A DNA stretch of 64,000 nucleotides, from NCBI GenBank assembly GCA_029210565.1, contig JARGFQ010000016.1:2313-66312 (forward strand), given 5' to 3'. Source of the DNA: Bacteroidales bacterium (GTDB lineage Bacteria; Bacteroidota; Bacteroidia; Bacteroidales; VadinHA17). Below are positions 1 to 54,842 of the stretch, in pieces (positions within the stretch are counted from its first letter, which is position 1; each line of letters starts with the position of its first letter). The position numbers and the translations under genes were made by a program. A model generated the notes under the pieces. That model worked only from the letters and a program-made list of their open reading frames with translations. It searched no databases and was not told the DNA's origin.

Positions 1-2533
1 CAAGCAGATTCACATCAACCGTGATGCTCTTTTTCTCGCCCGGCAGCAGAACAATATAATTGTCGTCGAAAAAGACAGGTGTCACCATCTTTCCGTCAAT
101 AGCCCTGATAACCTTCATCCTTACGAAGAAGGCTGCCACATCGCCGCTGTTTGCTATGTCAATGGTAAACTTACCCTGGTTACTCTTCATCATCTGACCT
201 ACAACCTTTGCCTTGCCAAGAGCCATCAGCTCCTTCTGGTCGCCTTCGCGGGGAAGCCAGTAGGTATTCTCATCTACGGTCAGGCCGGTGGAGACATAAG
301 TTATGCGGAGCCGCAGAAAATAAACCTTAGCCGGCTTGCCCCCGAGATCCACATCCCACACCTTTATGTGGCTGTTGGGAGGAAGAGTGGTTTCCTGAGA
401 TGCTTTCCATATTTCACGGCCGTTTTCATCAGTCAGCAGGGCATCAAGTCTCATGCCCTTGCGCTCCCTGGGCGTGGCATTGACGACATAGACGGCCGAG
501 TCTGCCGGATTGAACTGCAGATGTACCGGCGCTGCCCCGTGCCTGAAACCGTAGAAGCCTGCATTCTGATCAAGGTACCAGTCGTACATCTGCCCCTTGA
601 GTGCCGGCCAGGGATTCTGGCTCTTCCATAGCAGAAAGCCGGTGTACCAGTCCCACATGTGCGAGGTATATCCTTCAACCATCGAACGGTACTGTTCATA
701 GTTGACCAGCTGTGCCTTCTTCACGAAGTCCTTCAGGTCACTCACCTCCCCCATTCTATCAATCATGTCTCCATAGCCCATGTATTTATGATAGCGCCAT
801 ACCTCATTCACTTCCCTGCCTGAGGGCACAATCAGGTCGCTCTCATTCATCATCTTCTCCAGTGACTCCATATTTGGCAGACCTACTGAACCCATTTCAG
901 GATTGAACGGATGCCACTTTTCCGTGAAGAACCAGAGGGGCTCCCTGATATTGTAGGGGCCGTCACCAGTGCCTCCGATGGTGTTCCTGAGGATATCTGA
1001 AGAGGTTGACTCATCGAAGTAGAGCCTGGTGCCGTCAAGGGCGTCAAGTGTCTTTCTTATCCTGGCGTCCAGCTCCGGCGGCGGCGGGAACTCGTTGCCG
1101 CCGCAGTACATGTAGAGCGAAGGGTGATTACGAAGCATCTTCACCTGATCGGCCACCGAATTGATGAACAGAGAATGGTTGTCAGGATATTCACGGCGGC
1201 GTGCCTGTGTCTCGGCCTTTCTGAGGGTATCAGGCCACCTGCCGTTGCAGTCGCCGGTGATCCACAGATCCTGCCATACCAGTATGCCATACTTGTCGCA
1301 AGCCTCATAAAACTCCGGTCTCTCCATGATGGAGCCGCCCCACACCCTGATCATGTTCATGTTCATCTCGGCATGCATCTTCACCTCTGCATCGTATCTC
1401 GTACGGCTCAGACGCAGCATACCGTCGGAGACTATCCAGTTGGCCCCGCGGATAAATATCTTCTGACCGTTAATAGTAAAGACACGTGAGCCCGTCTTCT
1501 CATCGAACCAGCTGCCTGTCTCGCGGAAGCCGAACATCATATCCTCCCTGTCCAGCGTTGCCCCTTCCTTATCGTGAAATGTTATTACCGCCGGATAGAG
1601 TGACGGCTGACCCATTCCATTTGGCCACCAGATCCTGGGGTCAGTCTGTTTCATCTCCGAAAAGACAACTGTGGCCGTTGTCCCCGGCTCTATCTTTATC
1701 TTTTTCTTTTCAATGGAACCCATGTAGGCTAAGGCAGCCTCCCCCTCAACCAGCCTATCAGTGACGTTCTCAAACTCAGCAGAGAATGTAACGAAGGTCG
1801 GGTCCTGCAACTCGCCGGGAAGACGAGCGCCGGGCACACGTGTCCTGGCAAAACCGTTCCGTATATCCACATCACCGGTCACCTCAATGGAAACCTCATC
1901 CCAGATACCGGTGTTGCGGTCCCTGACAGGCTGTATCCAGTCCCACCCTGCTGTGAACTGCATGGTCACATCACGCCCTATCATACCGTCACCCCCCTGG
2001 CCGCCGTTGGGGTTGCCCGGATGGAGGGGCGGCTCCACCCTCACCGCAAGACGGTTGTAATCCTTCCTGTCGAGCAGTGAGGTGACATTATACTTCTGGC
2101 GCAGAAACATACCTTCGTGGGTGTCATCGCTTATCCGTTTCCCGTTGAAATAGATCTCCGCCCTGTAATTGATGCCCCTGAAGTTTATCCAGACCTGTTT
2201 CGTAGAATCGAGAGTCTCGGCTGAGAAACGTGTAAAGAACCAGTAAGTATAGTAATCACGTCCCTCGTTGTATACATCCGGTATCTCCTCGTTGTTTATG
2301 CCAAACCACGGCTCAGGCATGCGACCGTTGTTCACCAGGGTTGTCAGCACCGTCCCGGGAACGGTGGCGCTGATCCATCCGGATAGGTCAGGATCAGACT
2401 TTGTCAGATGGCATCCGTCAACATTTACTTCCGAGGCCTTCTTCGCCCTCCATCCTGCCGTGAGTGGCGTTACCTGGGCTGAAACAACCAGCGAGACAAT
2501 CAATAATAAGCTTGCAGTAAGTATCCGTTTCAT
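1..2533 (-). CDS. Glycoside hydrolase family 2 (beta-mannosidase / exo-beta-glucosaminidase-like), secreted; C-terminus lies outside the window
   Basis: Absent from the ORF track because it runs off the window edge. My reverse-strand translation from the ATG (rc of 2531-2533) gives MKRILTASLLLIVSLVVSAQVTPLTAGWR... and stays open to position 1. It contains the GH2-like motif NHPSLYMYCGGNEF (acid/base Glu region) and WQDLWITGDCNGRWPD. Confidence 0.75.
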   Translation of the reverse strand, partial: MKRILTASLLLIVSLVVSAQVTPLTAGWRAKKASEVNVDGCHLTKSDPDLSGWISATVPGTVLTTLVNNGRMPEPWFGINNEEIPDVYNEGRDYYTYWFFTRFSAETLDSTKQVWINFRGINYRAEIYFNGKRISDDTHEGMFLRQKYNVTSLLDRKDYNRLAVRVEPPLHPGNPNGGQGGDGMIGRDVTMQFTAGWDWIQPVRDRNTGIWDEVSIEVTGDVDIRNGFARTRVPGARLPGELQDPTFVTFSAEFENVTDRLVEGEAALAYMGSIEKKKIKIEPGTTATVVFSEMKQTDPRIWWPNGMGQPSLYPAVITFHDKEGATLDREDMMFGFRETGSWFDEKTGSRVFTINGQKIFIRGANWIVSDGMLRLSRTRYDAEVKMHAEMNMNMIRVWGGSIMERPEFYEACDKYGILVWQDLWITGDCNGRWPDTLRKAETQARRREYPDNHSLFINSVADQVKMLRNHPSLYMYCGGNEFPPPPELDARIRKTLDALDGTRLYFDESTSSDILRNTIGGTGDGPYNIREPLWFFTEKWHPFNPEMGSVGLPNMESLEKMMNESDLIVPSGREVNEVWRYHKYMGYGDMIDRMGEVSDLKDFVKKAQLVNYEQYRSMVEGYTSHMWDWYTGFLLWKSQNPWPALKGQMYDWYLDQNAGFYGFRHGAAPVHLQFNPADSAVYVVNATPRERKGMRLDALLTDENGREIWKASQETTLPPNSHIKVWDVDLGGKPAKVYFLRLRITYVSTGLTVDENTYWLPREGDQKELMALGKAKVVGQMMKSNQGKFTIDIANSGDVAAFFVRMKVIRAIDGKMVTPVFFDDNYIVLLPGEKKSITVDVNLL

Positions 2534-2625
2534 TCGATTATTTATTATTGTTTCATTGGTCGAATGGAACTTACATGTAGTACAATAACCATTTTCTCTT
2601 GCGGGTTACTGCTCATATAAGTTTC
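2531..2625 (-). repeat. Copy A of the ~95-nt structured leader element (hairpin + CCATTCGACCAAT + AT-rich spacer + CGAATG start)
   Basis: The reverse complement reads GAAACTTATATGAGCAG-N28-CTACATGTAAGTTCCATTCGACCAATGAAACAATAATAAATAATCGAATG. It ends on the GH2 start codon. Confidence 0.8.
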
Positions 2626-2869
2626 ATCCGTGTATAATTTGTTTTTAAAGGTAGGAGGGAACATCCATGAAATAATTATCTGCCTGTTTGTCAAACGGAA
2701 TTATCATTAATGTTTCATATGTGTCTCCTGTTGTAAACAAGAGTGGCAAGATATTAAAATTATCAGTACATGAGGGCCTACGCCCGATTGAAATGAATCA
2801 TGAACGTCCTCTGCCCGGGTGAAAAAAATTAACGGCAGACACTTTGATTTTAGCTGAAGAATTTAAACA

Positions 2870-23111: not shown

Positions 23112-23122
23112 CGAGCAGGACT

Positions 23123-24052: not shown

Positions 24053-24063
24053 AAACACAGACC

Positions 24064-24477: not shown

Positions 24478-24487
24478 CGATAAAGGC

Positions 24488-24925: not shown

Positions 24926-24938
24926 CACCCTGACAACC

Positions 24939-28038: not shown

Positions 28039-28050
28039 CACAAATAGACT

Positions 28051-28578: not shown

Positions 28579-28580
28579 AG

Positions 28581-28623
28581 GAATTAAGAATTAAGAGGTG
28601 TGAGTTGAGAATTAAGAATTAGG
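28581..28623. repeat. GAATTAAG-type octamer repeats inside the operon
   Basis: GAATTAAGAATTAAGA-GGTGTGAGTTGA-GAATTAAGAATTAGG fills the 49-nt gap between two Mrp-like genes. Confidence 0.8.
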
Positions 28624-28627
28624 CCAC

Positions 28628-29400: not shown

Positions 29401-30942
29401 ATGATGAATCCGCTGATACCGCTTTTCGTAGCCGTACCTCTTGCCGGGGCTTTCCTGACAATGATACTGGGCAGGTTCATTACAGCTATCCCCAGGTATA
29501 TGGCGCTGGCTGTGCTGCTCTTCCTGGCCTTCATCAGCTTCTGGTCACTGGTCGTGGGCGGGGATGGATCATCAGTCTATACACTTGGCGGCTGGGAGCC
29601 CGTCGATGGGGTTCCCATAGGTCTGTACCTGGTCCATGACGGTTTCTCGGCACTGCTGCTCTGCCTCATAAGCCTTGTAGGTCTCCTGTCAGTCACCTAC
29701 TCAGTCTCCTACATGGCAAGGTACACCTCCGAAAATTACTTCTACTCCCTCTTCTGCCTGATGATAGCAGGCATGAACGGAGTGGTGCTCAGCGGAGACA
29801 TCTTCAATATCTACGTCTTCCTGGAGATATCTGCCATCTCATCCTACGCACTCGTCGCCTTCGGGGTTGAGAAGAATGAACTTGAGGCCACACTCAAATA
29901 CCAGATCCTGGGGGTCGTCGCCTCATTCATGATACTCTTTGCCATCGGATTCATCTACTGGAGTGCAAAGACACTGAATATTGCAGATATCCGTACCGTC
30001 TTCAGTGCTGGTCACGACAACAGGTATTATCTTCTGATACAGTTACTGCTTCTCACCGGTTTTGGCCTCAAGGCTGCCATGATACCATTCCACGCGTGGC
30101 TGCCTGATGCCCACTCATCGGCCCCCTCTCCCATCTCGGCAATGCTCTCCGGGGTGCTTATCAAGGCGGTAGGCATCTATGTGATCATTCGCCTCTTCTT
30201 CAATATGTTCGAAGTTACAGAGGGCATGTCAATAGTTATCACCACCCTTGGCGCGCTCTCAATGGCTGTTGGCGTCTTCCTGGCTATCGGTCAGTGGGAC
30301 ATCAAGCGGCTGCTGGCCTATCACAGCATCAGCCAGATGGGTTACGTGGTCATGTCGGTGGGAATAGGAATGATACTCATGGCCAGGGGCATCCGGAGCG
30401 AGGTAGCCGCCCTCGCTATCACCGGGGGCATCTTTCATATGCTCAACCATGCTGCCTTCAAGGGACTGCTCTTCCTCAACGCGGGGGCCATAGAGTATTC
30501 AGTCGGCACCCGTGACCTAAGGGAGATGGGCGGACTGGCAAAGGGCATGCCGGTAACCTCCGCCACTTCGCTGGTCGCCTCACTCTCAATATCCGGCATA
30601 CCACCCTTCAATGGCTTCTTCAGCAAACTGATAATTATAGTGGCAGCAGTGATGGGCCGCTTTTATTTCCTGGCTCTCCTTGCGGTCATAGTGAGTATCA
30701 TTACACTGGCCTCCTTCATGAAGTTCCAGCGCTATGCCTTCTACAATATTGATCCCGGAAAGATCAGGAACGACATAAAAGAGGTGCCAGCGCCCATGTT
30801 GCTGAGCATGATCACCCTGGCTGTCGTCTGCCTGCTGCTCAGCCTGCTGGCGCTGCCCGGCCTCCGCGAGACGGTACTCTCACCCGCAACGGACATTCTG
30901 ATGGACCAGCTCAAATATTCCTCACAGATAACAGGCATGTGA
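29401..30942 (+). CDS. MrpD / NuoN-class antiporter-like subunit (second one)
   Basis: 513 aa. IPFHAWLPDAHSSAPSPISAMLSGVLIK motif. Confidence 0.88.
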   Translation: MMNPLIPLFVAVPLAGAFLTMILGRFITAIPRYMALAVLLFLAFISFWSLVVGGDGSSVYTLGGWEPVDGVPIGLYLVHDGFSALLLCLISLVGLLSVTYSVSYMARYTSENYFYSLFCLMIAGMNGVVLSGDIFNIYVFLEISAISSYALVAFGVEKNELEATLKYQILGVVASFMILFAIGFIYWSAKTLNIADIRTVFSAGHDNRYYLLIQLLLLTGFGLKAAMIPFHAWLPDAHSSAPSPISAMLSGVLIKAVGIYVIIRLFFNMFEVTEGMSIVITTLGALSMAVGVFLAIGQWDIKRLLAYHSISQMGYVVMSVGIGMILMARGIRSEVAALAITGGIFHMLNHAAFKGLLFLNAGAIEYSVGTRDLREMGGLAKGMPVTSATSLVASLSISGIPPFNGFFSKLIIIVAAVMGRFYFLALLAVIVSIITLASFMKFQRYAFYNIDPGKIRNDIKEVPAPMLLSMITLAVVCLLLSLLALPGLRETVLSPATDILMDQLKYSSQITGM

Positions 30943-30943
30943 T

Positions 30944-31429
30944 ATGAGATACGTGACAGTTTTTATATTATCCATGATCTTCTGGCTCCTGATCACCTTC
31001 AGATTCACGGTGTCGAATATTGTTGCAGGAGCCGCTGTTGCAGCCATAACGTCAGCCATCTTCGGCAGGTACTACTTCCATAATGTGGGCAAATTCCTCC
31101 AGCCGAGGCGCTGGTTCTGGTTCCTGGTATACCTTGTCACATTCATCTGGGCATGCATAAAGGCCAACTTCGATGTAGCCTACCGTGTGCTCCATCCGGG
31201 TATGCCAATCAGACCGGGAATAGTGAAGGTGAAGACCACCCTGCGGTCCGACTTCGCCCGGACACTGCTTGCCAATTCGATTACTATGACGCCGGGGACG
31301 ATCACCGTCGACATTATCGGCGATGAGATGTATATCCACTGGATCTATATCCGGTCTGAAGACCCTGCGGTATATTCCAGGATGGTGACCGGGAGATTTG
31401 AAGAGTACATTAAAAAATTTGCGGAATGA
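30944..31429 (+). CDS. MnhE / MrpE / MbhA-like subunit
   Basis: 161 aa. NSITMTPGTITVD motif. Confidence 0.8.
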   Translation: MRYVTVFILSMIFWLLITFRFTVSNIVAGAAVAAITSAIFGRYYFHNVGKFLQPRRWFWFLVYLVTFIWACIKANFDVAYRVLHPGMPIRPGIVKVKTTLRSDFARTLLANSITMTPGTITVDIIGDEMYIHWIYIRSEDPAVYSRMVTGRFEEYIKKFAE

Positions 31430-31692
31430 CCACTTTCCTGAATATCCTGCTTTACATACAGATTGCACTGTGCGCAGCCTGCCTCTACCGGATTGTCAGG
31501 GGGCCTACCATACCCGACCGGATGGTAGGCATAGACATATTCGGGATACTGGTGGTAGGAATCTGCGGAATCATATCGGTGCTGACAGACAAGGCCTTTA
31601 TCCTCGATATCGGCATTGCCTGGGTAATATTGAGTTTTATAGGAACCCTTACGCTGGCAAAATACCTCAGCGGCAAAAAACTGAACGAGTGA
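31426..31692 (+). CDS. MnhF / MrpF / MbhB-like subunit
   Basis: 88 aa. RIVRGPTIPDRMVGID motif. Confidence 0.8.
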   Translation: MTTFLNILLYIQIALCAACLYRIVRGPTIPDRMVGIDIFGILVVGICGIISVLTDKAFILDIGIAWVILSFIGTLTLAKYLSGKKLNE

Positions 31693-31693
31693 T

Positions 31694-32011
31694 ATGGCAG
31701 CTGTGATCTTAATATCGGTAGGAGTCCTCTTTAATCTCTTCGGGTGTCTGGGCCTCCTGAGGCTGCCGGACATGTACAACAGGTTGCAGGCAGCAACAAA
31801 GTGCGTGACGCTGGGATGCTGCAGCATCCTCCTGGGTGTCATGTTTCACTACGGTCTCGGCAGTGCCGGCTTCCGTGCCCTGGTGGCTATCCCGGTGCTC
31901 TTCTTTACAGCCACCGTGGCTGCACACGCCCTGGTCAGGGGCGCATACCATTTCGGAACGAAAATGGACAAAAGGAGTGTGAAAGATGATTATAGTGAGA
32001 TAGTAAAATGA
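31694..32011 (+). CDS. MnhG / MrpG / MbhC-like subunit
   Basis: 105 aa. LRLPDMYNRLQAATKCVTLG motif. Confidence 0.8.
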   Translation: MAAVILISVGVLFNLFGCLGLLRLPDMYNRLQAATKCVTLGCCSILLGVMFHYGLGSAGFRALVAIPVLFFTATVAAHALVRGAYHFGTKMDKRSVKDDYSEIVK

Positions 32012-32105
32012 AACTTGCATGAGCTAAAGCTTACAAAAGGATTTGATTACTAATTTTCATGCAAGTTCCATTCGACCAATACAATAAATTTTTCAGATAC
32101 GAATG
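32010..32105 (+). repeat. Copy B of the structured leader element, located inside the [NiFe] operon
   Basis: GAAACTTGCATGAGC-N33-TTCATGCAAGTTCCATTCGACCAATACAATAAATTTTTCAGATACGAATG. It begins at the mnhG-like stop and ends on the nuoI-like start codon. Confidence 0.8.
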
Positions 32106-32723
32106 AAGTACCCTAAACTTAGAGAGCTGAAAGAGGCAGTGACATCACTGGTAACACCTGCATATACCTCAAATTTTCCGGCCGGGGGCCATGTGCCCTT
32201 CAAGGATTTTAGGGGTAAGCCTGTTGTTGATGATGCCAACTGTGTGGGGTGTGAGACATGTGCCAATGTATGTCCCCCGCTGGCGATCACCTTCACTGAC
32301 GACAGGGAGAAGAAGATCCGTACCATCAGGCGGGATTACGGCAAGTGCATCTTCTGCGGCCAGTGCCAGGAGCATTGCATCACGGGCAAGGGAGTGAAAC
32401 TCTCCGACACCATCTTCGATATGGCTGCCTTCGACAGGTCAGCCGTCGTGGAGTACCAGGAAAAGGAGTTGCTGGTGTGCGAGAACTGTGGCGCCATAAT
32501 AACAACAGTCGAGCACCTCAGCTATATGCACCGCAAGCTCGGACCTAAAGCCTTTGCATCAATACTCAACCTCAACATCCTGAACCGTAAGCTGAAACTG
32601 GCTGAGGGACAGGATCTCTCGGCAGAGATAGACGAGACACTCCAGAGAAAGGATATGTTTAATGTCATCTGCCCTAACTGCCTGCGGCAGGTAACCGTCA
32701 AGTATCTTATCAGAGGTGCCTGA
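32103..32723 (+). CDS. NuoI / MbhN-like 2x[4Fe-4S] subunit with a C-terminal Cys4 extension
   Basis: 206 aa. CVGCETCANVCP and CIFCGQCQEHC motifs, plus extra CENC...CPNC pairs in the last ~85 aa. Confidence 0.8.
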   Translation: MKYPKLRELKEAVTSLVTPAYTSNFPAGGHVPFKDFRGKPVVDDANCVGCETCANVCPPLAITFTDDREKKIRTIRRDYGKCIFCGQCQEHCITGKGVKLSDTIFDMAAFDRSAVVEYQEKELLVCENCGAIITTVEHLSYMHRKLGPKAFASILNLNILNRKLKLAEGQDLSAEIDETLQRKDMFNVICPNCLRQVTVKYLIRGA

Positions 32724-33171
32724 GAACCTGACAGACCTTCTTTCGGACAAAAACCGGAAAATCCTCTTCGTCGGCATAGGAAACATCCTGCGACAGGATG
32801 ACGGAGCAGGTGTATATGTCAGCACACATATAAACGAAACAGAAACCATAAGAGTGCTGACTCCGGAAGTCAGCATCGAGAACTATATCGGGAAAATCAA
32901 CTCCATTGACCATGATACCCTCGTGCTGATCGACTGTGCAGACATTAAAAAGCCACCCGGAACATGGGAACTGATACCCGTGGAGCAGATCAGGGACCTC
33001 ACCTTCAATACTCATAACATCTCACTCAGACGACTCTCTGAATTCTTTGAAAATGAAGTGCTGATACTCACAATTCAGCCGGAAACTGTTGCTTTCGGAG
33101 AAAATTTATCGTATATTGTACATGAAGCTTGTAACAAAATTGTCGGACTGATTAACAAAAAGGAGGTATAA
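32716..33171 (+). CDS. Hydrogenase maturation endopeptidase (HycI/HyaD family)
   Basis: 151 aa. ILFVGIGNILRQDDGAGVYV motif. GTG start overlapping the upstream stop. Confidence 0.85.
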   Translation: MPENLTDLLSDKNRKILFVGIGNILRQDDGAGVYVSTHINETETIRVLTPEVSIENYIGKINSIDHDTLVLIDCADIKKPPGTWELIPVEQIRDLTFNTHNISLRRLSEFFENEVLILTIQPETVAFGENLSYIVHEACNKIVGLINKKEV

Positions 33172-34009: not shown

Positions 34010-34852
34010 ATGAAAACCAATATTGAACTCAGGTATGCCGCCCATCCTGAAGATGTGAAAAACTGGTGTACGGAGCAGCTCCGCAATGAGCATCTTGTCA
34101 GCAACCTCTTTGAAGTTAACACCATTAACATGGTCTATTCACTCTATGATCGCATGGTGGCCGGAGGAGCAATGCCGTCAGGTGAAGCCCTGAGGCTTGA
34201 ACCGGTGGATGAGGTCAAGGCAGCATGGTTTCTTCACAGACGCGAGCTCGGTATCTTCAACGTAGGAGGCGAAGGGAGGGTGACCGCCGGAGACAAAACA
34301 TACTCACTTGGACACAAAGAGGCTCTCTACCTCGGCAGCGGCGACAGGGAGGTGATCTTTGAAAGCGCTGACCCCGGCAGTCCCGCGCTCTTCTACTTCA
34401 ACTCCGCCCCGGCACACCGCAAATACCCCGACAGGAAAGTGATAAAAGCGGATTGCATAACCGCAGAAATGGGTTCGATGGAAGCTGCCAACCACAGGGT
34501 GATAAACAAGATGATTGTGAGGGAGGTGCTGGATACATGCCAGTTGCAGATGGGCATGACTGAACTGATGACCGGCAGCGTGTGGAACACCATGCCGCCC
34601 CACACTCACGGCCGGCGCATGGAGGTTTACTTCTATTTCGGGGTGCCTGAAGGAGGAGCCGTATGCCACTTTATGGGAGAACCAACCGAGACACGTCATA
34701 TATGGATGAAGAACAACGAAGCGGTGATATCACCGCAGTGGTCTATCCATGCCGCTACGGCTACCTCCAGCTACACCTTCATCTGGGGGATGGCCGGGGA
34801 GAACCTCGATTACGGCGACCAGGACTTCTTCAAACAGACAGACCTGCGCTAG
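34010..34852 (+). CDS. kduI: 5-dehydro-4-deoxy-D-glucuronate isomerase
   Basis: 280 aa. Strong resemblance to KduI throughout (ELGIFNVGG, WNTMPPHTHGRRMEVYFYF, YTFIWGMAGEN). Confidence 0.92.
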   Translation: MKTNIELRYAAHPEDVKNWCTEQLRNEHLVSNLFEVNTINMVYSLYDRMVAGGAMPSGEALRLEPVDEVKAAWFLHRRELGIFNVGGEGRVTAGDKTYSLGHKEALYLGSGDREVIFESADPGSPALFYFNSAPAHRKYPDRKVIKADCITAEMGSMEAANHRVINKMIVREVLDTCQLQMGMTELMTGSVWNTMPPHTHGRRMEVYFYFGVPEGGAVCHFMGEPTETRHIWMKNNEAVISPQWSIHAATATSSYTFIWGMAGENLDYGDQDFFKQTDLR

Positions 34853-34883
34853 ACCCCTGTTTCACCAAACAAAATATTTAGCT

Positions 34884-35669
34884 ATGAACAGTGACTTATT
34901 CAGGCTCGACGGCAAGGTGGCTCTTATCACCGGCGCATCCTACGGCATAGGCATGGCAATGGCGAAAGCTCTGGCCCAGGCAGGAGCCACCATCGTGTTC
35001 AACGACCGCAACCAGGAGAAAGTTGAGACGGCACTTCAGGAGTACAGTGATTCAGGCATAGATGCCAGGGGCTACCTCTTTGATGTAACCGACGAGAAGG
35101 CGGTCAGGAAAAATATTGAAAAGATAGGCTCAGAGGTCGGCGTGATAGACATCCTTGTCAACAACGCCGGCATTATCAAGAGGATACCCGCCCTTGAGAT
35201 GAATGCTGCCGAGTTCCGGGAGGTGATCGACATAGATCTTACCGGCCCCTTCATCATGTCAAGGGCCGTGGCTCCCGGAATGATAAAAAAGGGTGGCGGT
35301 AAGATCATCAACATATGTTCCATGATGAGCGAGCTCGGACGCGAGACCGTATCTGCCTATGCCGCCGCAAAGGGCGGATTGAAGATGCTGACCCGCAACC
35401 TGGCCTGCGAATGGGCAGAGTTCAACATCCAGGTCAACGGCATCGGACCGGGATATATCGCCACCCCGCAGACAGCACCGCTGCGAGAAGAGGGACACCC
35501 GTTCAACACCTTCATTATCGGACGTACACCCGCTGCAAGATGGGGCAAACCCCAGGATCTGGAGGGACCGGCAGTGTTCCTTGCCTCGAGGGCCTCCGAC
35601 TTCGTGAACGGACACATACTCTACGTCGACGGCGGCATACTCGCCTATCTCGGCAAGCAACCAAAATGA
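34884..35669 (+). CDS. kduD: 2-dehydro-3-deoxy-D-gluconate 5-dehydrogenase / gluconate 5-dehydrogenase-family SDR
   Basis: Starts MNSDLFRLDGKVALITGASYGIG. YAAAK catalytic motif. Adjacent to kduI. The track ORF starts too early, inside kduI. Confidence 0.85.
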   Translation: MNSDLFRLDGKVALITGASYGIGMAMAKALAQAGATIVFNDRNQEKVETALQEYSDSGIDARGYLFDVTDEKAVRKNIEKIGSEVGVIDILVNNAGIIKRIPALEMNAAEFREVIDIDLTGPFIMSRAVAPGMIKKGGGKIINICSMMSELGRETVSAYAAAKGGLKMLTRNLACEWAEFNIQVNGIGPGYIATPQTAPLREEGHPFNTFIIGRTPAARWGKPQDLEGPAVFLASRASDFVNGHILYVDGGILAYLGKQPK

Positions 35670-35732
35670 ATAACACACTACAGAATGAATCCCGCATCAA
35701 CCAGAGATCAAAAATGGATCTGATCATTGATT

Positions 35733-35772
35733 AAATGCAGGTGCCATTCGTCCAATAACCCTCTATCAAATG
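35733..35772 (+). repeat. Degenerate 3-prime remnant (copy C) of the leader element
   Basis: AATGCAGGTGCCATTCGTCCAATAACCCTCTATCAAATG compared with CATGTAAGTTCCATTCGACCAAT...ATG. Confidence 0.45.
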
Positions 35773-36897
35773 AAAAAAACACTCCTTCTGCTCTTCTCCG
35801 CCGTGATCGTAAGCGGATGTGCAGGTGACCGTGCAAAAGTCAAGATTGAAAATCCTCTCCCCTTTGACAGGAGTGCGGAGACCGTTGAGATACCCATTAC
35901 CTCAATAGCTGAGAAGCTGCCTGACTTCAACCCATCCGAACTACTGATTACTGACCGCAAGGGAAATGAGATCCCCTCACAACTCATCTATGCCGGAAAA
36001 GCCGAACCGCAGTCGCTGATCTTTCAGTCTGACATGAAGGCCGGCTCCTCCTCGGTATACTTCATCGAAAATGGGACGCCTTCAGATTATGAGGCCAAAG
36101 CCTTTGGGCGGTTTGTTCCCGAGCGAATGGACGACTACACCTGGGAAAATGACCGAATCGCCTTCCGCATATACGGCCCTGCTCTTATTGCCAAGGACGG
36201 TCCCAGCAACGGCCTCGACGTATGGGTCAAAAGGACTGACAGGATGGTTATAGACAGATGGTACTCCGATTATTTGGCAGGGAAGAACAGCTATCATGAT
36301 GATAACGGTGAGGGGTGCGACTCCTACAAGGTGGGACGCACGCTGGGAGCCGGGGCGATGGCCCCCTTCGTTGACGATTCCCTCTGGCTGGGAATCAACT
36401 TCGAAACATGGGAGACACTTGACAATGGCCCGCTTCGCACATCCTTCAGACTGACATATCCTCCGTTTGAGGTTCGCGGCGTGATGTTCACCGAGACCCG
36501 CACCTTCTCACTCGATGCCGGCAGCCAGATGAACCGGGTGACGGAAGAGTTTTCCGGGTTGGACAAGGTCTTTACCGTGGCCGCTGGCATAGTAAAGAGA
36601 GATGAAGGCTCAGCACTGCTCTTTCCCCCGGAAAAAAATGCCATTGCCTACCGCCTCGACGGAGGAGAGGGGGGTATAACATACGTAGGGACTGTCCTGA
36701 CCACCTCCGCCACGGCCGTTCAGGAGAACAGTGAACACCTGATGATCATCACCAGGTACATCCCGGGCACCCCGCTGGTATACTATACCGGTGCAGGCTG
36801 GAGCAAGTGGGGCTTTGAAACTGACGATGCCTGGAAAGATTATATTGACAAATTCTCTCAGAAACTGAGAACGCCTGTCAGGGTGTCATTGAAGTGA
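35770..36897 (+). CDS. DUF4861-family lipoprotein (common in pectin utilisation loci)
   Basis: 375 aa. Lipobox LFSAVIVSGCAG. The family assignment is from sequence recollection only. Confidence 0.6.
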   Translation: MKKTLLLLFSAVIVSGCAGDRAKVKIENPLPFDRSAETVEIPITSIAEKLPDFNPSELLITDRKGNEIPSQLIYAGKAEPQSLIFQSDMKAGSSSVYFIENGTPSDYEAKAFGRFVPERMDDYTWENDRIAFRIYGPALIAKDGPSNGLDVWVKRTDRMVIDRWYSDYLAGKNSYHDDNGEGCDSYKVGRTLGAGAMAPFVDDSLWLGINFETWETLDNGPLRTSFRLTYPPFEVRGVMFTETRTFSLDAGSQMNRVTEEFSGLDKVFTVAAGIVKRDEGSALLFPPEKNAIAYRLDGGEGGITYVGTVLTTSATAVQENSEHLMIITRYIPGTPLVYYTGAGWSKWGFETDDAWKDYIDKFSQKLRTPVRVSLK

Positions 36898-36933
36898 CCG
36901 TCGGCATAAACCATAGACATCGTTACACGTAAT

Positions 36934-37029
36934 GAAACCTACATGAGCAGCATCTTACAAATGAGATTGATTCCCTTATCTCATGTAAGTTCCATTCGAC
37001 CAATGAAATAACAATTACTTATTCGAATG
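36934..37029 (+). repeat. Copy D of the structured leader element
   Basis: GAAACCTACATGAGCAG-N29-CTCATGTAAGTTCCATTCGACCAATGAAATAACAATTACTTATTCGAATG. It ends on the GH105 start codon. Confidence 0.8.
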
Positions 37030-38250
37030 AAAACAAGAGTCATCACTCTCCTTGTCGCCGGCATCACGCTGGCATCACTACTCTCTTCATGCCTGAGCCG
37101 TAGCAATAACCGTGGCACCAGCGAGGCAGGACTTAAATCCCCCCTTTGGTCGGTACGCATGGCGGAATCGGAGATGGTTCGCAACCCTTCACTCTGGATG
37201 GTTGACTTCGTTAAGGTAAAGAAGTGGAACTACACTCACGGACTGATGGGCCTCGCTTTTCTGAGACTCCATGAGGCCACTGGCGACAGCAGGTATTTTG
37301 AATATGCAAAGGGTTATGCCGACTCACTCATCGACGAAAACGGAGTGATCTACAAATACAAAAAGGAAAACTACAACATTGACCATGTAAATCCCGGGAA
37401 AATGATGTTCCTGCTCCATGACCTGACGAAGAATCCGGCATACGAAAAGGTGATACACACTCTCAGGGAGCAGCTCGAATCACAGCCCAGGACTCCTGAG
37501 GGCGGTTTCTGGCATAAGAAGATCTACCCCGACCAGATGTGGCTCGACGGCCTTTACATGGGGGCTCCCTTTTATGCTGAATATGCACTCAGGTATGACC
37601 GGCCGGAGGATTTTCAGGATGTGATCAACCAGTTTCTTATCGCCACAGCGAACACTCATGATCCGGCAACAGGACTCTACAGGCACGCCTTCGATGCCTC
37701 GCGGAAGATGGCATGGGCTGACCCTGTGACCGGGCAGGCGCCTCATGCATGGGGACGGGCCATGGGGTGGCTCTCAATGGCTTTTGTTGATGTGCTGGAC
37801 TTCCTGCCGGAAGATCAGCCCGGCCGGGATGAACTGATTACCATACTACGAACAATGGTTGACAGGCTGGCGGAGATACAGGACCCGGAGACCGGAGGAT
37901 GGTACCAGGTGCTTGACCGGTCGGGTGATCCGGGCAATTACATCGAAACATCCTGCACCTCTATGTTTGCCTATTCCATCTTCAAAGGGGTAAGAAAAGG
38001 ATATCTCGACAGCGACCTCCTTGAAATAGCCATTGAAGCCTATGAAGGGCTCATTGAAAACTTCATTGAGATAGAGGAAAACGGGCTGGTGACATTGACA
38101 AACATTTGCGGTGTGGCGGGACTCGGGGGCGATCCTTACCGCGACGGCTCCTATGAGTATTATATCGGTGAGGTGATACGCGACAATGACCCCAAGGGAG
38201 CAGGACCATTTATCATGGCCAGCCTCGAATATGAAAGACTCTCAAAATAA
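37027..38250 (+). CDS. GH105 unsaturated rhamnogalacturonyl hydrolase (YteR/YesR family)
   Basis: 407 aa with a lipoprotein signal. GH88/105-type motifs WNYTHGLMG, MWLDGLYMG and WGRAMGW. Confidence 0.8.
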   Translation: MKTRVITLLVAGITLASLLSSCLSRSNNRGTSEAGLKSPLWSVRMAESEMVRNPSLWMVDFVKVKKWNYTHGLMGLAFLRLHEATGDSRYFEYAKGYADSLIDENGVIYKYKKENYNIDHVNPGKMMFLLHDLTKNPAYEKVIHTLREQLESQPRTPEGGFWHKKIYPDQMWLDGLYMGAPFYAEYALRYDRPEDFQDVINQFLIATANTHDPATGLYRHAFDASRKMAWADPVTGQAPHAWGRAMGWLSMAFVDVLDFLPEDQPGRDELITILRTMVDRLAEIQDPETGGWYQVLDRSGDPGNYIETSCTSMFAYSIFKGVRKGYLDSDLLEIAIEAYEGLIENFIEIEENGLVTLTNICGVAGLGGDPYRDGSYEYYIGEVIRDNDPKGAGPFIMASLEYERLSK

Positions 38251-38380
38251 GATTCACCGGCCGTAAATAACCGTCATAGCAGGGCAGAACAGTACTGGTC
38301 GTGGAAGACATGCCGGCCCGGGGTCACCATTCCGGCCCGGGGCAAACCCGTTGTCTATCTGAATACCGTGTAATCGGCCA

Positions 38381-39325
38381 CTAGCGCGCGGGCATCCAGC
38401 CATCGTGGCGGGCAAAGACCCTCTCCACCGTGTATCTCTTGACCTCCTTCCTGCTCAGCTGACGGCTCCATGCAACTCTCGACTGCGGGTTGGCCCCCGG
38501 ACCGCTGCTGCGGTACTCGGCATAACGTGCCGTCTTCTCATTGTCAGAATTGTCCCAGTTATGCCAGCCCTCAGGCCTGATATGGTCTCCCAGGTCGCAC
38601 TTTATGAACACCGTGGCAGCAAACGGACGCCAGGGCCGGCCCAGGTAGGCCCGCGTGACACTGTCTGCGGCCGTAAGCCTGCAGCGGTTGAAGATGTAGC
38701 CCTGTTCATGGTCCTCCACCGTTGAGGCGGCAGTGACATAGGAGTTCTTCTTGCTGTGAATGTGACATCTCTCAAACCAGGCGGTTGCCGGTCCGAAGAT
38801 GAAGTCGGTAGTACCCTCAATGTAACACTCCTCATAATACTGTCTGCTCTCCTGGTTGGCCGTCAGCAGCGTATCCTGGTTACCCAGGAACCTGCAGCGA
38901 CGGAAGACAACCCTGTCGGCATCGACATGCACCGCCACCGCCTGCCCCAACTGCTCCGCATTGTTTTCAAAGGTGATATCCTCCGCGGTGAACCCTGATC
39001 CAAGCACCCAGACGGTGTATGTCCTGAAGGTACCCATGTTGCGTATCCTGGCGTGGTCATTCCAGGTGATGACCGTCATGTCCGCGCTCTCCCCCTTCAT
39101 GTAAAGATTTGTAACCCACGAGGGGATAACTATCTTTTCACGGTAGGTGCCGTTCCTGATGAACATGTAAGTGGTGTCTGACATATAAGCCCTGATCGAA
39201 TTGACCGCTTCCTGTACCGAGGTGAATTCGCCGGAACCGTCGGAAGCTACCGTGATATGCCTCGGCTCACTGAAAACAGCAACCGATTGCAACGCGATTG
39301 TAAGCAGGATGGCAAACCTCTTCAT
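38381..39325 (-). CDS. Pectinesterase (CE8)
   Basis: 314 aa with a signal peptide. CE8 motifs GTYRE, QAVAV, QDTL, DFIFG and LGRPW. Confidence 0.9.
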   Translation of the reverse strand: MKRFAILLTIALQSVAVFSEPRHITVASDGSGEFTSVQEAVNSIRAYMSDTTYMFIRNGTYREKIVIPSWVTNLYMKGESADMTVITWNDHARIRNMGTFRTYTVWVLGSGFTAEDITFENNAEQLGQAVAVHVDADRVVFRRCRFLGNQDTLLTANQESRQYYEECYIEGTTDFIFGPATAWFERCHIHSKKNSYVTAASTVEDHEQGYIFNRCRLTAADSVTRAYLGRPWRPFAATVFIKCDLGDHIRPEGWHNWDNSDNEKTARYAEYRSSGPGANPQSRVAWSRQLSRKEVKRYTVERVFARHDGWMPAR

Positions 39326-39413
39326 GTATGCTGCATTATTAGGGAATTAAGACCCTAATTTAGTTTTTTATTATTATTTTTCGAAATCGCTAAAACCTCT
39401 TAACAGAGAAAAA

Positions 39414-40667
39414 ATGAATGAGACCGGCAAATACTCTTTTGGGATCGGAGACAGGTTCTCACACCAGGGTAAAGCACAGCTGCAGGCACTGATGAAGGCT
39501 TCTGCCAACCTTGGGATCCAAATTACACCTGTATGGAATAAGTCAAACAGGGAACATAATATCGTTCATTCCGAGCCGTCTGACACGCGTGCCGAGGCCG
39601 ATGCCGCCGTTCTGGCTCTAGGCTACAACGGCCCCTATTTTGTTGACGCTGACCACATTAACCTGCTAACCGTCGGACGCTTTATCGATCACTCCGATTT
39701 CTTTACCCTTGATGTGGCCGATTATATCGGCAAACAGGCATCGGATACCGATATCGAGGGGTTTGTCGAAGCCCACCGCTCCTATATAGGTGACCTCAGC
39801 ATACCGGGCATAACAGACCGGTTCACCATAACTGAAAATTATCTTAGGGAATTTGCAGGGAAATTTCTCTTTGCCCTTAACGAGGCTGCTGCCATATACC
39901 GTCATATAGCATCGGTGAAAGGCGCAGGGAACTTTGTGACGGAAGTATCTATGGATGAGGTCGACCAGCCGCAGCAACCGCTGGATATGCTATTCATCCT
40001 CAAGGGACTGGCTGACCTCGAAGTACCCTTGCAGACCATAGCTCCCAAATTTACCGGCAGGTTCAACAAGGGAGTCGATTATGAGGGTGACCCGGTCCGC
40101 TTCGGCAAGGAGTTCGAAGAGGACATCCTCGTCATCAGGTATGCCATCAGGATGTTCGGACTGCCTGCTGACCTGAAGCTCAGCGTCCACTCCGGAAGTG
40201 ACAAGTTCTCCATCTACCCGGTCATGGGATCCCTGATAAGAAAACATGACTGCGGACTGCATCTCAAGACCGCCGGCACCACATGGCTCGAGGAGGTGAT
40301 CGGCCTGGCCCTCTCCGGAGGCACTGGCCTCGATCTTGCAAAACTCATCTACCGCAGGGCCTTTGAAAGACGGGAAGAGCTGTGCACACCATATGCCACA
40401 GTCATCGACATCAATCCGGAAATACTTCCCAATCCCGATGAAGTTGAGACATGGGACAGCCGAAAGTATGCAGAGACACTGAGACATGTGCCGGGCAACC
40501 CGAACTACAACCCGAGCTTCCGCCAGCTCATACATGTGGGCTACAAGGTTGCATCCGAACTGGGAGAGCAATATACCGCTGCACTGGAGGTAAACGCCGC
40601 CGTAATAGCCGGATGCGTCACTGAAAACATATATGAAAGACATGTCACCCCGCTATTCAGCGAATAA
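39414..40667 (+). CDS. Tagaturonate/fructuronate epimerase (UxaE-like)
   Basis: 417 aa. The family call rests on recollection of UxaE-type sequences (FGIGDRFSHQGKAQL N-terminus) and on the hexuronate context. Confidence 0.55.
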   Translation: MNETGKYSFGIGDRFSHQGKAQLQALMKASANLGIQITPVWNKSNREHNIVHSEPSDTRAEADAAVLALGYNGPYFVDADHINLLTVGRFIDHSDFFTLDVADYIGKQASDTDIEGFVEAHRSYIGDLSIPGITDRFTITENYLREFAGKFLFALNEAAAIYRHIASVKGAGNFVTEVSMDEVDQPQQPLDMLFILKGLADLEVPLQTIAPKFTGRFNKGVDYEGDPVRFGKEFEEDILVIRYAIRMFGLPADLKLSVHSGSDKFSIYPVMGSLIRKHDCGLHLKTAGTTWLEEVIGLALSGGTGLDLAKLIYRRAFERREELCTPYATVIDINPEILPNPDEVETWDSRKYAETLRHVPGNPNYNPSFRQLIHVGYKVASELGEQYTAALEVNAAVIAGCVTENIYERHVTPLFSE

Positions 40668-40808
40668 TTGCATCTGGTATTCCATGGCACGGGAACAGTG
40701 AGGGCATGATATAACCTCAGAAGAAAAGGTGACAGCTGAATCAGATTCTCGCACCCAATCAAATAAACTGAATGTGTAGCGGCACATATAAGATATTGAA
40801 TACAAGGT

Positions 40809-40855
40809 CTCATGAGGGTTAGATCCGATCAATGAGGTAAATTTTTACGCGAATG
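40809..40855 (+). repeat. Diverged 3-prime half (copy F) of the leader element
   Basis: CTCATGAGGGTTAGATCCGATCAATGAGGTAAATTTTTACGCGAATG aligns with CTCATGTAAGTTCCATTCGACCAATGAAATAACAATTACTTATTCGAATG. Confidence 0.55.
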
Positions 40856-42259
40856 AAAGAATTTATCAATAAAGATTTTCTTCTGCAGAATGATGTGGCA
40901 AGGGCACTCTACCATGATCATTCTTCAGGTATGCCGATAATCGACTATCACTGCCATCTCAGCCCGGAAGCCATCGCAAACGACAGGCGGTTTGAAGATC
41001 TCGGACAGTTGTGGCTTGAGGGCGACCACTACAAGTGGAGGGCTATGAGGGCCAACGGCGTCGACGAAAAATTCATTACCGGTAAGGAGACCTCCTTCCG
41101 CCAGAAGTATGACCGCTGGGCAGAGACAGTACCATTCACCATGCGCAATCCGCTCTATGCCTGGACACACCTTGAGCTGAAACGGGTCTTCGGCGTGAGC
41201 CGTATCTTCAAGCCTGAAACTGCAGCTGAGATATGGGAAGAGTGTACTGAGCTCCTCCGCCAACCGGAATATTCGGCTCGCGGACTGATGAAGAAATTTA
41301 ACGTGGAGACAGTCTGCACAACAGATGACCCGGTCGACTCCCTCGAATATCATAAAGCCATCAGGGAGGGCGGTTTTGAAGTTAAAGTTCTGCCTGCCTG
41401 GCGGCCCGACAAAGCCATGGCGGTCGAAGACCCCGTGACATATAATGACTATATTTCAAGGCTCTCGGAGGTGTCAGACACTAACATCAAAAACTTCGCA
41501 ACCCTTCTTGAGACCCTGCGTAGGCGTCACGACTTCTTTGCCGGCGAAGGCTGCCGCCTGAGTGACCACGGCATTGAACAGTTCTATGCAGATGATTATA
41601 CTGACAGTGAGATAGACGCCATTCTCGGGAAAATCCTTTCTGGTAACCGCCTGAATCAGGCGGAGATTTCCAGGTTCAAATCTGCCATGCTCTATGAACT
41701 TGCCGTCATGGATGCGGAAAAGGGATGGACACAGCAGTTTCACTACGGTGCCATACGCAACAACAATAGCCGTATGTTTGCCAGGCTTGGCCCTGATACC
41801 GGCTATGACTCCATGGGCGACTTCACCGTGGCAAGAGATCTTGCCAGGCTGCTCGACCGGCTCGATGCCGGAGGCAATCTCACGAAGACTATTCTCTACA
41901 ATCTCAATCCCCGCGACAACGAACTGATTGCCTCCATGACCGGCAACTTCCAGGACGGTATTTTTCCCGGAAAGATCCAGTTCGGGGCCGGGTGGTGGTT
42001 CCTTGACCAGGAGACCGGCATGATCAACCAGCTCAATGCCCTCTCGCTGATGGGACTGCTCAGCAGGTTCGTCGGCATGCTCACCGACTCGCGCAGCTTT
42101 ATCTCCTATCCGCGTCATGAGTACTTCCGCAGGATACTCTGCAACATGCTCGGGGAAGATGTCATCAAAGGCAAACTGCCCGAGTCAGAGCTTGATACAA
42201 TAGGGAAAATGGTTGAAAACATCTCATACTACAATGCAAGAGATTTTTTCGGATTCTGA
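40853..42259 (+). CDS. uxaC: Glucuronate isomerase
   Basis: 468 aa. FLLQNDVARALYHDH..PIIDYHCHL N-terminus is typical of UxaC. Confidence 0.92.
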   Translation: MKEFINKDFLLQNDVARALYHDHSSGMPIIDYHCHLSPEAIANDRRFEDLGQLWLEGDHYKWRAMRANGVDEKFITGKETSFRQKYDRWAETVPFTMRNPLYAWTHLELKRVFGVSRIFKPETAAEIWEECTELLRQPEYSARGLMKKFNVETVCTTDDPVDSLEYHKAIREGGFEVKVLPAWRPDKAMAVEDPVTYNDYISRLSEVSDTNIKNFATLLETLRRRHDFFAGEGCRLSDHGIEQFYADDYTDSEIDAILGKILSGNRLNQAEISRFKSAMLYELAVMDAEKGWTQQFHYGAIRNNNSRMFARLGPDTGYDSMGDFTVARDLARLLDRLDAGGNLTKTILYNLNPRDNELIASMTGNFQDGIFPGKIQFGAGWWFLDQETGMINQLNALSLMGLLSRFVGMLTDSRSFISYPRHEYFRRILCNMLGEDVIKGKLPESELDTIGKMVENISYYNARDFFGF

Positions 42260-53901: not shown

Positions 53902-54044
53902 TTTATATCCCGCTTTTTTGTTCCCGGTCCGTGGGCCTGAATTTTGTTCGCCGGTGAAAAATCAGCTGTTTTTATGTATGTTTGCGTGATTAATAACCGG
54001 CAGATATGCAGCATACCCGCTCTCTGCACACAAGAATGAATACT

Positions 54045-54144
54045 GAAACTTACATGAGCAGAAACTCACAGAAGGACATGATTTGTTTATTTCATGTAAG
54101 TTCCATTCGACCAATGCAATAATAATTATTTATTTACCCGAATG
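54045..54144 (+). repeat. Copy E of the structured leader element
   Basis: GAAACTTACATGAGCAG-N30-TTCATGTAAGTTCCATTCGACCAATGCAATAATAATTATTTATTTACCCGAATG. The terminal ATG opens a 3-codon uORF whose TGA overlaps the FKBP start. Confidence 0.8.
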
Positions 54145-54149
54145 AAACG

Positions 54150-54842
54150 ATGAAAAATGTCAAAATCTTAACCGTCATTGTTCTTTGTGCCGTGACAACA
54201 TTCACCGCCGCGGCGCAGAAATCAAAATTCTCCACCTCCGAAGACTCACTATCCTATGCTCTCGGCGTGGCAAATTATAAATACTATGTGGCCGACAGTA
54301 TTGATATCAGCACAAAACTGTTCTATAAAGGGATGAAGGATGCCGAAAAGGAGAAGCCCGTCATGAACGATACAACTGCCAGTGCTTTCATAGTAAGCTA
54401 TATGCAGAGGCGTGAGAAAGCACGACTGACTGCCGAGTACAGCACTCAGATCCAGGAGGCAGAAGCGTTTTTCGACGAGAACGGCAAAAAAGAGGGTGTC
54501 GTCGTACTTCCAAGCGGACTTCAGTATAAAGTTCTGAACCGGGGTACAGGCGCAACTCCAGGTCCTGATGATGTTGTCAGGGTACATTATACCGGCACCA
54601 CTGTCAACGGAACAAAGTTCGACTCCTCGTATGACCGTGGCGAGCCTGCACAGTTCAGGGTCAGCAACGTCATAAAAGGATGGATTGAAGGACTACAACT
54701 GATGCAGGAGGGCTCAAAAATGATGCTTTATATTCCCTATGACCTTGCCTACGGGGAGAGAGGAGCAGGCAGTATCATCAAACCGTTTGAGACACTGATC
54801 TTCGAAGTTGAGCTTTTAGAGGTGATAAAAGAAGATGAGTAG
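54150..54842 (+). CDS. FKBP-type peptidyl-prolyl isomerase (FkpA/Mip-like), secreted
   Basis: 230 aa with a signal peptide. [27 protein letters not shown], and LIFEVELL. Confidence 0.9.
   Translation: MKNVKILTVIVLCAVTTFTAAAQKSKFSTSEDSLSYALGVANYKYYVADSIDISTKLFYKGMKDAEKEKPVMNDTTASAFIVSYMQRREKARLTAEYSTQIQEAEAFFDENGKKEGVVVLPSGLQYKVLNRGTGATPGPDDVVRVHYTGTTVNGTKFDSSYDRGEPAQFRVSNVIKGWIEGLQLMQEGSKMMLYIPYDLAYGERGAGSIIKPFETLIFEVELLEVIKEDE

Follow-up and report, generated by a model that had tools for sequence, protein, structure and literature searches.

The 64,000-nt stretch of DNA analysed here (the window; GenBank assembly GCA_029210565.1, contig JARGFQ010000016.1, positions 2,313-66,312 of the forward strand, from a VadinHA17 Bacteroidales bacterium) carries several copies of a structured repeat of about 95 nt, most of which end on the start codon of a gene. 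The results below lead us to conclude with high confidence that this repeat is an insertion element with the core ATGAA(A). The fuller interpretation, that it is a non-autonomous mobile DNA element of ~95 bp which inserts at ATGAAA and is then kept as the leader of the gene at which it landed, has in our estimate a probability of about 0.7. An initial annotation of the window had described the repeat as a family of hairpins and had missed the insertion: relatives precisely lack the element and have a single ATGAAA at the site.

Empty and filled sites in related genomes

The window contains six copies, four intact (A, B, D and E) and two decayed, all in the same orientation as the following gene. 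The four intact copies of the initial annotation were all confirmed at their places. Its coordinates begin at the G of the 5′ ATG and end at that of the 3′ ATG; counted from ATG to ATG, the units occupy 2627-2531 on the minus strand (A), 32008-32105 (B), 36932-37029 (D) and 54043-54144 (E). The 23-mer CATGTAAGTTCCATTCGACCAAT, with up to 3 mismatches allowed, matched the window 4 times, compared with 0 matches expected from 100 shuffles. The decayed copies were detected by scanning with a covariance model built on an alignment of 68 non-identical copies. Copy C lies at 35678-35783 (47 bits) and ends at the start ATG of a DUF4861 gene at 35770, and the sixth copy lies at 40755-40866 (36.6 bits) and ends at the start ATG of uxaC at 40853.

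Locus B is the junction between an MnhG-like gene and a 4Fe-4S gene. A relative's contig joins window position 32006 directly to 32102, skipping 95 nt, and the six nucleotides AATGAA at the join fit both sides. We fetched 80 metagenomic orthologues of the 4Fe-4S gene and could read the upstream flank in 78. Most of these flanks were empty, with the sequence ...GTGAAATGA(A/G)... in which stop and start overlap (in its longer form ...GCAGTGAAATGA(A/G)TACCC, where the upstream TGA overlaps the downstream ATG). Among the 78, only L084, L087, L090 and L106 were filled, in addition to the window itself, L002, L022 and L067. In the filled state the stop lies in the 5′ AATGAAAC of the element and the start in its 3′ CGAATGAA, so that the repeated AATGAA allows both the upstream stop and the downstream start to survive. 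RNA splicing as the source of the 95-nt skip was ruled out, because the same empty junction was present in most of the DNA metagenome contigs read. Empty sites were also found at loci D and C, where both genes begin at a lone ATGAAA in the syntenic DUF4861-GH88 contigs L182 and L183 (78% protein identity), and where the window and L179 contain the element.

To define the target, sites before insertion were rebuilt from 62 copies. An A was found at +5 in 95% and at +6 in 87% of them, compared with ATGAAA at only 12% of other called gene starts, indicating that the shared core is ATGAA(A) and not just ATG. In L005 the two hexamers differ (left ATGAGA, right ATGAAA), a difference that later mutation could explain. 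ATGAAA (Met-Lys) is the commonest gene start in these genomes and is also found where genes of an operon overlap in an ATGA stop/start. Once the element has inserted, a copy of the hexamer flanks it on either side, and an upstream stop and a downstream start are thereby both kept. Insertion would occur at ATGAAA, or at least at ATGAA.

Several observations concern the timing of the movement. On a gene tree of locus B the filled state was scattered rather than monophyletic: the gene of L022 (filled) was 93% identical to that of L085 (empty) and 87% identical to that of L087 (filled), and L106 (filled) paired with L109 (empty). This distribution implies repeated gain or scarless loss. In the nested copies at L035/L057, L046 and L073, the 5′ part of one unit is followed by a complete second unit and then by what remains of the first unit's tail, as would be expected if one element had inserted into the internal ACCAATGAAAT (AATGAA) of another copy. 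Marinilabilia and Thermophagus contain tandem arrays of three units in which neighbouring units share ATGAAA. Paralogues within a genome had a median identity of 74%, reaching 98% in a Marinilabilia metagenome-assembled genome (MAG) and 96% in UBA4772. The nested and tandem copies and the 98%-identical paralogues point to recent movement.

A scan with an exact 18-mer from inside the 3′ arm, using one genome per species, returned 83 stretches, of which about 75 were true copies, and the covariance model added about 20 more divergent copies in the same loci. The carriers were about 20 Bacteroidales MAGs (UBA4772, WOFB09, BF4_172 and "Rikenella"-labelled), Marinilabilia MAGs and Thermophagus isolates, with at least 19 exact-core copies in the MAG UBA4772. 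In one metagenome the conserved core had ~32 times the depth of its flanks, and metagenome contigs from runs X1, X9, X12 and X14 break within the element (window 36941-37074). The repeat fragments short-read assemblies of the organisms that carry it. A phage link was also considered and rejected, as none of 15 IMG/VR 16-mer matches was an element by the covariance model.

Two irregular sites were seen at these loci. In L067:2250-2780 (MAG WOFB09) the orthologue of copy D breaks off after ...GTTCC and continues into what appears to be the interior of GH88, which looks like a deletion that begins within the element or else a misassembly of the MAG at the repeat. L102:760-850 and L104:1-85 have another insert of ~40-45 nt at the locus-B ATGA junction, resembling a degenerate duplicate of the 4Fe-4S gene start (ATGAAATATCCCAAATCAGAGAGC...). 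The locus-B junction seems prone to rearrangement.

Pairing within the element and its possible mode of mobilisation

The four intact copies have a common layout, ATGAAAC-TTRCATGAG, a loop of ~32-40 nt, CTCATGYAAGTT-CCATTCGACCAAT, 20-25 A/T-rich nucleotides and CGA-ATG, and the unit length from ATG to ATG is 93-96 bp. The parts of copy D, the focal copy, are as follows.

36932..37032, plus strand: full unit of copy D, from the 5′ ATGAAA to the 3′ ATGAAA (107.5 bits)
36932..36947, plus strand: 5′ arm of stem P1, ATGAAACCTACATGAG, including the left hexamer, which is the old start codon
36948..36979, plus strand: variable loop with a small inner hairpin of the GAGCAG..CUC type
36980..36995, plus strand: 3′ arm of stem P1, CTCATGTAAGTTCCAT
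36993..36999, plus strand: 5′ arm of helix P2, CATTCGA, whose CAT is common with the base of P1
37000..37022, plus strand: linker CCAAT and A/T-rich tail, the 20-25 nt directly 5′ of the start codon
37023..37029, plus strand: 3′ arm of helix P2, TCGAATG, containing the gene start codon (P2 probability 0.97)
37027-38250, plus strand: GH88/GH105 gene, starting at the 3′ ATGAAA of copy D

The stem of the initial annotation was recovered, although not with the 11-13 bp given to it: the hairpin has 16 bp (AUGAAACUUGCAUGAG / CUCAUGCAAGUUCCAU) and extends to ATGAAAC/GUUCCAU, with the old copy of the start, including the 5′ ATG, at its base. The architecture described there also overlooked that the 3′ start codon is itself paired, through CAUUCG(A) with (U)CGAAUG. 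In the 68 aligned copies the main stem was 93-94% paired and the second helix 94% paired. The left hexamer forms the base of the stem; in 62-67 of the 68 copies its AUG is paired with CAU, and the same CAU together with UCG(A) pairs with the right-end (U)CGAAUG in 62-66. The base of the stem also contains a conserved A.C mismatch. Compensated variants of the second helix were CAUCCG/CGGAUG, CAUCAG/CUGAUG, CAUUAG/CUAAUG and CAUCUG/CAGAUG.

The initial annotation was right on the G.U pair of copy A and on the replacement of A-U by G-C in copy B. At the pair changed in copy B, the 68 copies had GC in 38, AU in 19 and GU in 11, and none was unpaired. Covariation had been taken there as the sign of a selected hairpin. 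Selection is borne out by the conservation presented below, whereas the covariation represents few independent events because much of it separates the two main sub-families of the element. A mutual-information scan of the loop detected mainly sub-family linkage and no additional helix. The numbers of G.U and A.C pairs were 26:10 in the main stem, a modest excess, and 10:9 in the second helix, with no excess. Such an excess would speak for a fold of the sense strand, as RNA or single-stranded DNA, over one of duplex DNA. The hairpin itself is retained from the initial reading as an RNA or DNA hairpin, and because the asymmetry is modest, the helices could act as RNA, as single-stranded DNA or as both, the G.U:A.C counts favouring neither RNA nor DNA.

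Sub-family and copy variants were noted in two places. In the Marinilabilia/Thermophagus sub-family (L013:965-1262, L023:4360-4660) the middle of the stem reads CGAGCAUG / CAUGCGAG, where a tandem G.A/A.G mismatch stands in place of two U-A pairs, both sides being altered. At L010:6440-6640 (Thermophagus xiamenensis) the loop is enlarged by a run of the heptamers CACTAAC / CACTAAT and the terminal ATG is ATA.

When the two ends are joined, the sequence TCGA-ATGAAAC-TTGCATGAG is complementary to the internal strand CTCATGCAAGTTCCATTCGA, with 16-18 of 20 positions matching, and the two helices are consequently the halves of one junction helix. The ends are not complementary to each other. The left end (CTTGCATGAG...) and the right end (...AAATAATCGA) leave the inverted repeat subterminal on the left and internal on the right, with one large hairpin on the left and only the 6-7-bp CATTCG/CGAATG helix around an A/T-rich loop on the right. 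No terminal inverted repeats were visible beside the repeated hexamer in the aligned ends. As there are no such repeats, the core is fixed and the empty sites appear scarless, we favour as the putative mobiliser an enzyme that acts site-specifically or on single strands (a tyrosine recombinase, or an HUH nuclease-ligase for single-stranded DNA) over a DDE (cut-and-paste) transposase; confidence in any particular enzyme is low. As judged from the sequences, the hexamer would belong to the element, and integration would use identity or pairing at the core. The complementarity of GUUCCAUUCGA to UCGA-AUGAAAC probably defines the recombination site in the mobile form. GC skew over the 64 kb was uninformative on replication-strand bias.

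A tentative alternative within the single-strand class is that the element derives from IS200/IS605 or resembles repetitive extragenic palindromic (REP) sequences, and that an HUH enzyme acting in trans inserts it 3′ of ATGAA(A) without duplication, the element ending in the same hexamer and excising without a scar. IS200/IS605-derived elements and REP/REPIN sequences likewise are based on hairpins, lack terminal inverted repeats, use a fixed short target and leave scarless empty sites. The subterminal hairpin, the exact empty sites and the scattered filled state agree with this mode. In IS608, cleavage and target sites are recognised by pairing with an internal guide (PMC3201880, PMC5934647), and the internal strand complementary to both junctions in the present element recalls that arrangement. 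The fit to IS200/IS605-derived elements is only partial, however. There is a single large hairpin rather than one per end, the pairing involves 10-11 bp of Watson-Crick type compared with the 4-nt non-canonical contacts of IS608, the target is a start codon, and a translation leader is carried along. REP sequences have a conserved GTAG-type tetranucleotide 5′ of the palindrome, whereas the element consensus has no GTAG beside its stem, and no Y1 transposase of the IS200/IS605 or REP-associated type was seen, none having been searched for.

Recombination of the folded hairpin by a tyrosine recombinase, as known from integron attC sites or from CTX phage and Xer integration, appears improbable. 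Strand exchange would then take place inside the core ATGAAA, near AA|C at the base of the stem. The stem base ...AAC/GTT..., like the attC R″/R′ boxes, the conserved A.C mismatch as an unpaired position, the boundary of the repeated hexamer at ATGAAA|C and the direct core repeats flanking the insert, which are typical of site-specific recombination, are in keeping with it. An attC site is also an imperfect hairpin of similar size that lies just upstream of the next open reading frame (ORF) and recombines at a short shared core. On the other hand, comparison of the 7-nt attC boxes RYYYAAC/GTTRRRY with ATGAAAC/GTTCCAT shows agreement only at AAC/GTT and outer positions, and the boundary is found on the coding strand within the 5′ arm instead of at G|TT in the 3′ arm. 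The neighbours are immobile, syntenic housekeeping genes rather than cassettes, only 95 bp are gained or lost, and there is no array or integrase context, no integrase having been looked at.

We give similarly little weight to a classical MITE (miniature inverted-repeat transposable element) moved by a DDE transposase, with a 5-6-bp target-site duplication and a strong preference for ATGAAA. The element is small, free of ORFs, present in many copies and divided into sub-families, as in a MITE, and each copy is flanked by a 5-6-bp direct repeat that is single in empty sites. Terminal inverted repeats beside the direct repeats are missing, however, and the element's stem includes the left repeat, which pairs with GUUCCAU in 62-67 of 68 copies; this would be a coincidence if the repeat were a mere target duplication.

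Retention at gene starts and a possible role as leader

The initial annotation held that the element always ends on a start codon. This is so for most copies, which are oriented with the gene, but not for all. In 55-62 of ~95 sense copies a long ORF had the terminal ATG as its first ATG; for 13-17 more, a co-oriented gene began no further than 120 nt downstream, usually after an intervening ORF of 2-4 codons, and only about 4 faced the end of a convergent gene. Positions at or within 120 nt upstream of a co-oriented start accounted for 68 of 81 occupied sites, compared with 24 of 50 unoccupied non-coding AATGAAA sites (Fisher p = 2e-5). Orientation and position are thus not random relative to genes, and no match to Rfam or to a described MITE was found. 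Young Marinilabilia copies often have no gene downstream, suggesting that the hexamer guides insertion and that copies at gene starts are then preferentially retained. The ending on start codons is mainly due to the target sequence and to this retention. One young Marinilabilia copy with no gene after it (L051, minus strand, copy 1493-1609) has on its 3′ side a terminator-like hairpin, GGCAGGACGG...CCGTCCTGCC TTTT.

Resident copies are conserved. Orthologous intact elements were 80-99% identical, compared with 35-69% at the 4-fold sites of the adjacent gene, indicating that the intact copies are under selection. Copy A was 98-99% identical to its orthologues (4-fold sites 61-69%) and the element at the pyrH locus 95% identical (66%). 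For loci found through the protein and thus unbiased, the values were 83% and 39% (locus B, window and L087) and 75% and 51% (L106). Between orthologues the arms, linker and CGAATG diverged by 0-10%, compared with 20-40% for the upstream flank and 30-50% for the distal loop, and the element was among the best-conserved local stretches, clearly so at loci A and pyrH. The strongly decayed sixth copy was 68% identical to its orthologue L067:1020-1131, with 77% at the 4-fold sites, which is about the neutral rate. Gene conversion is an unlikely cause of the conservation, because orthologues share copy-specific loops and the within-genome paralogues are much more diverse, as given above. Copies at gene starts would thus be retained by purifying selection as messenger RNA leaders while some others decay, a scheme that the above comparisons partly document.

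The selected feature is not a leader peptide, because coding is not conserved. The old ATG frame reaches a stop after 4 codons (ATG AAA CTT GCA TGA), and this 5′ ORF is variable (MKLA, MKLT, MKPT, MKLI) or has lost its start to CTG, GTG or ATA; the 3′-arm ORF depends on the sub-family (MQVPFDQ* and M*). Initiation in Bacteroidota is reported to rely on unstructured A-rich leaders and not on Shine-Dalgarno pairing. The tail of the element is ~90% A/T from -24 to -4 of the new start, and metatranscriptome contigs (run X22) join the element to flanking sequence; the RNA data comprise two runs with distant relatives, both as assembled contigs. No promoter of the Bacteroidetes type (-33 TTTG / -7 TAnnTTTG, properly spaced) was seen by eye inside the unit, and one lies upstream of copy E. 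Judging by sequence features, the conserved resident copies most likely serve as the A/U-rich translation leader of their gene, and with moderate confidence we propose that the tail and hairpins act on translation. Insertion would shift the native leader 95 nt upstream, the tail of the element would replace it as the initiation region, and the element would be transcribed together with its gene. The hairpin would bury the old AUG: with GUUCCAUUCGA paired to the old AUG, the AUG of the gene would be left free, and with the same GUUCCAUUCGA paired instead to CGAAUG, the competing helix would shut it.

Predicted pair probabilities in 64 copies favoured a shut gene AUG in 33 and an open one in 26, with neither in 5, and the two states have nearly equal energy. 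At some loci the predicted state is shared by orthologues, copy A being always open and copy D and the copy before a biotin-carrier gene always shut. These observations bear on another interpretation, compatible with the mobile-element reading, in which the repeat acts first of all as a regulatory RNA in cis (a riboswitch-like leader, a translational switch or a thermometer) and mobility is only how it spread. Stabilisation of the hairpin down to AUGAAAC/GUUCCAU would free the gene start from the CAUUCG/CGAAUG helix, and a single global signal would then govern dozens of unrelated genes. An alternative pairing around the start codon, as in riboswitches and thermometers, is indeed present in silico: the two helices share CAU and are exclusive. 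The purifying selection on the arms, linker and CGAAUG of resident copies, the constant orientation with the downstream gene and the main-stem G.U excess also speak for regulation by RNA. It remains a minority interpretation in our view. A ligand core is missing, the loop where a pocket would be expected being the least conserved part, and the downstream genes have no common function. In addition, decayed copies persist before apparently intact genes, the young Marinilabilia copies often precede no gene, and the second helix shows no strand asymmetry.

A rather speculative combination of the two ideas is that the element represents an undescribed class of site-specific mobile hairpins, which would recognise the start-codon hexamer through its pairing with the internal complementary strand, and that resident copies have been adopted by the host as a two-state leader exposing either a decoy or the real AUG. 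If this were true, dozens of unrelated Bacteroidales genes would be under one translational control.

Several points weigh against the interpretation as a mobile element kept as a leader. Clean empty sites were obtained at three loci only (B, C and D). At locus E, a relative in run X16 (~85% identical) skips 140 nt (53994-54133) with imprecise ends; the skip covers most of copy E and ~50 nt upstream and was unusable as an empty site. A true target-site duplication and a shared recombination core are indistinguishable by sequence alone, and the locus-B tree was built by neighbour-joining on saturated DNA. No transposase, recombinase or autonomous parent was found, no genome-wide search having been made. 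Most loci were fetched by the exact 18-mer in the 3′ arm, which inflates conservation there but affects neither the 5′ arm nor the loci found through the protein. The role in translation is predicted from sequence and folding, and it is surprising that a leader supporting translation should have a second helix able to shut the start codon. Finally, as the G.U excess is modest (26:10) or absent (10:9), the helices may matter as DNA only.

Relation to known repeats and genomic neighbourhood

The initial annotation did not recognise the element as a named RNA family, and the database searches agree. Rfam 15 gave no match at gathering score in the whole window, and a permissive scan of copy D returned only chance-level microRNA and small-RNA matches far below threshold. 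Literature searches (start-codon repeats in Bacteroidetes, MITEs and the motif string) retrieved no description of the family, which is also not covered in the Minerva preprint.

Mycobacterial interspersed repetitive units (MIRUs) are 46-101 bp long, lie inside operons in the orientation of the genes and also form tandem arrays. They are the closest in concept to the ~95-bp element described here. Both are short interspersed repeats oriented with the gene, and both are inserted at start codons or stop/start junctions (for MIRUs, Supply et al. 1997 in the summary of PMC12548453). A MIRU, however, has a spanning ORF coupled by a 4-nt stop/start overlap, whereas no frame is open across the present unit, which has instead a 16-bp hairpin and its own A/U-rich leader and comes from a different phylum with a different sequence.

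Correia elements of Neisseria, ERIC, BOX/RUP and the Rickettsia palindromic elements (RPE) are multi-copy, structured repeats that are transcribed in messenger RNAs and tolerated owing to the place or manner of their insertion. They have no fixed relation to a start codon, and the present element differs from Correia in the latter's terminal inverted repeats and TA duplications and from RPE in the latter's in-frame position within genes. A start-codon-targeting mobile hairpin with a built-in leader is a new variant among small bacterial repeats and not a new category; in concept, MIRUs, REP sequences and IS200/IS605-derived elements stand nearest to it.

Landing of mobile elements on start codons is very rare, MIRUs being the only other case that we found, and the element would be a second, independently built example, equipped with a leader and hairpin of its own where MIRUs have a coupled ORF. 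By rewiring the last ~95 nt upstream of many genes it would constitute a natural experiment on initiation free of Shine-Dalgarno pairing, in which the tail may be a portable initiation region. The conservation above synonymous sites suggests host-level use of a once-selfish element. For annotation, the element explains long repeated "intergenic" stretches and contig breaks in MAGs, and it marks true start codons.

The other copies in the window are listed below.

2528..2627, minus strand: copy A, whose terminal ATG (2533-2531) starts a GH2 gene
32008..32108, plus strand: copy B, in the ATGA stop/start overlap of the MnhG-like gene (31694-32011) and the 4Fe-4S gene (32103-32723)
35685..35775, plus strand: copy C, decayed, ending on the DUF4861 start ATG at 35770; empty site in L182
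40762..40858, plus strand: sixth copy, strongly decayed, ending on the uxaC start ATG at 40853
54043..54153, plus strand: copy E, with its 5′ ATG mutated to CTG

In copy B the stop TGA of the upstream gene sits in the 5′ ATGAAAC. The terminal ATG of copy E (54142) opens a 3-codon ORF, ATG AAA CGA TGA, which overlaps the real start of the FKBP gene at 54150. Pfam assigned the genes after the copies to GH2 (A), 4Fe-4S (B), GH88/GH105 (D), FKBP (E), DUF4861 (C) and UxaC (sixth), in line with the earlier view that the downstream genes are functionally unrelated and the element generic rather than pathway-specific. Further downstream genes, judged from their N-terminal sequence alone, were PyrH-, formate-tetrahydrofolate ligase-, biotin-carrier subunit-, E2 acyltransferase-, CysS- and TatC-like, together with many secreted proteins.

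Copy B lies inside a co-oriented gene cluster (20311-33171), whose annotated part (29401-33171) encodes Proton_antipo_M, MnhE, MrpF and MnhG (Mrp/Mbh-like), followed by the 4Fe-4S protein and a HycI-like maturation protease; this content suggests a membrane-bound hydrogenase-type complex. Copies C, D and the sixth lie within 6 kb of each other in a cluster for pectin and hexuronate utilisation (34010-42259) with KduI, a short-chain dehydrogenase, DUF4861, GH88/GH105, a pectinesterase, UxaE and UxaC.

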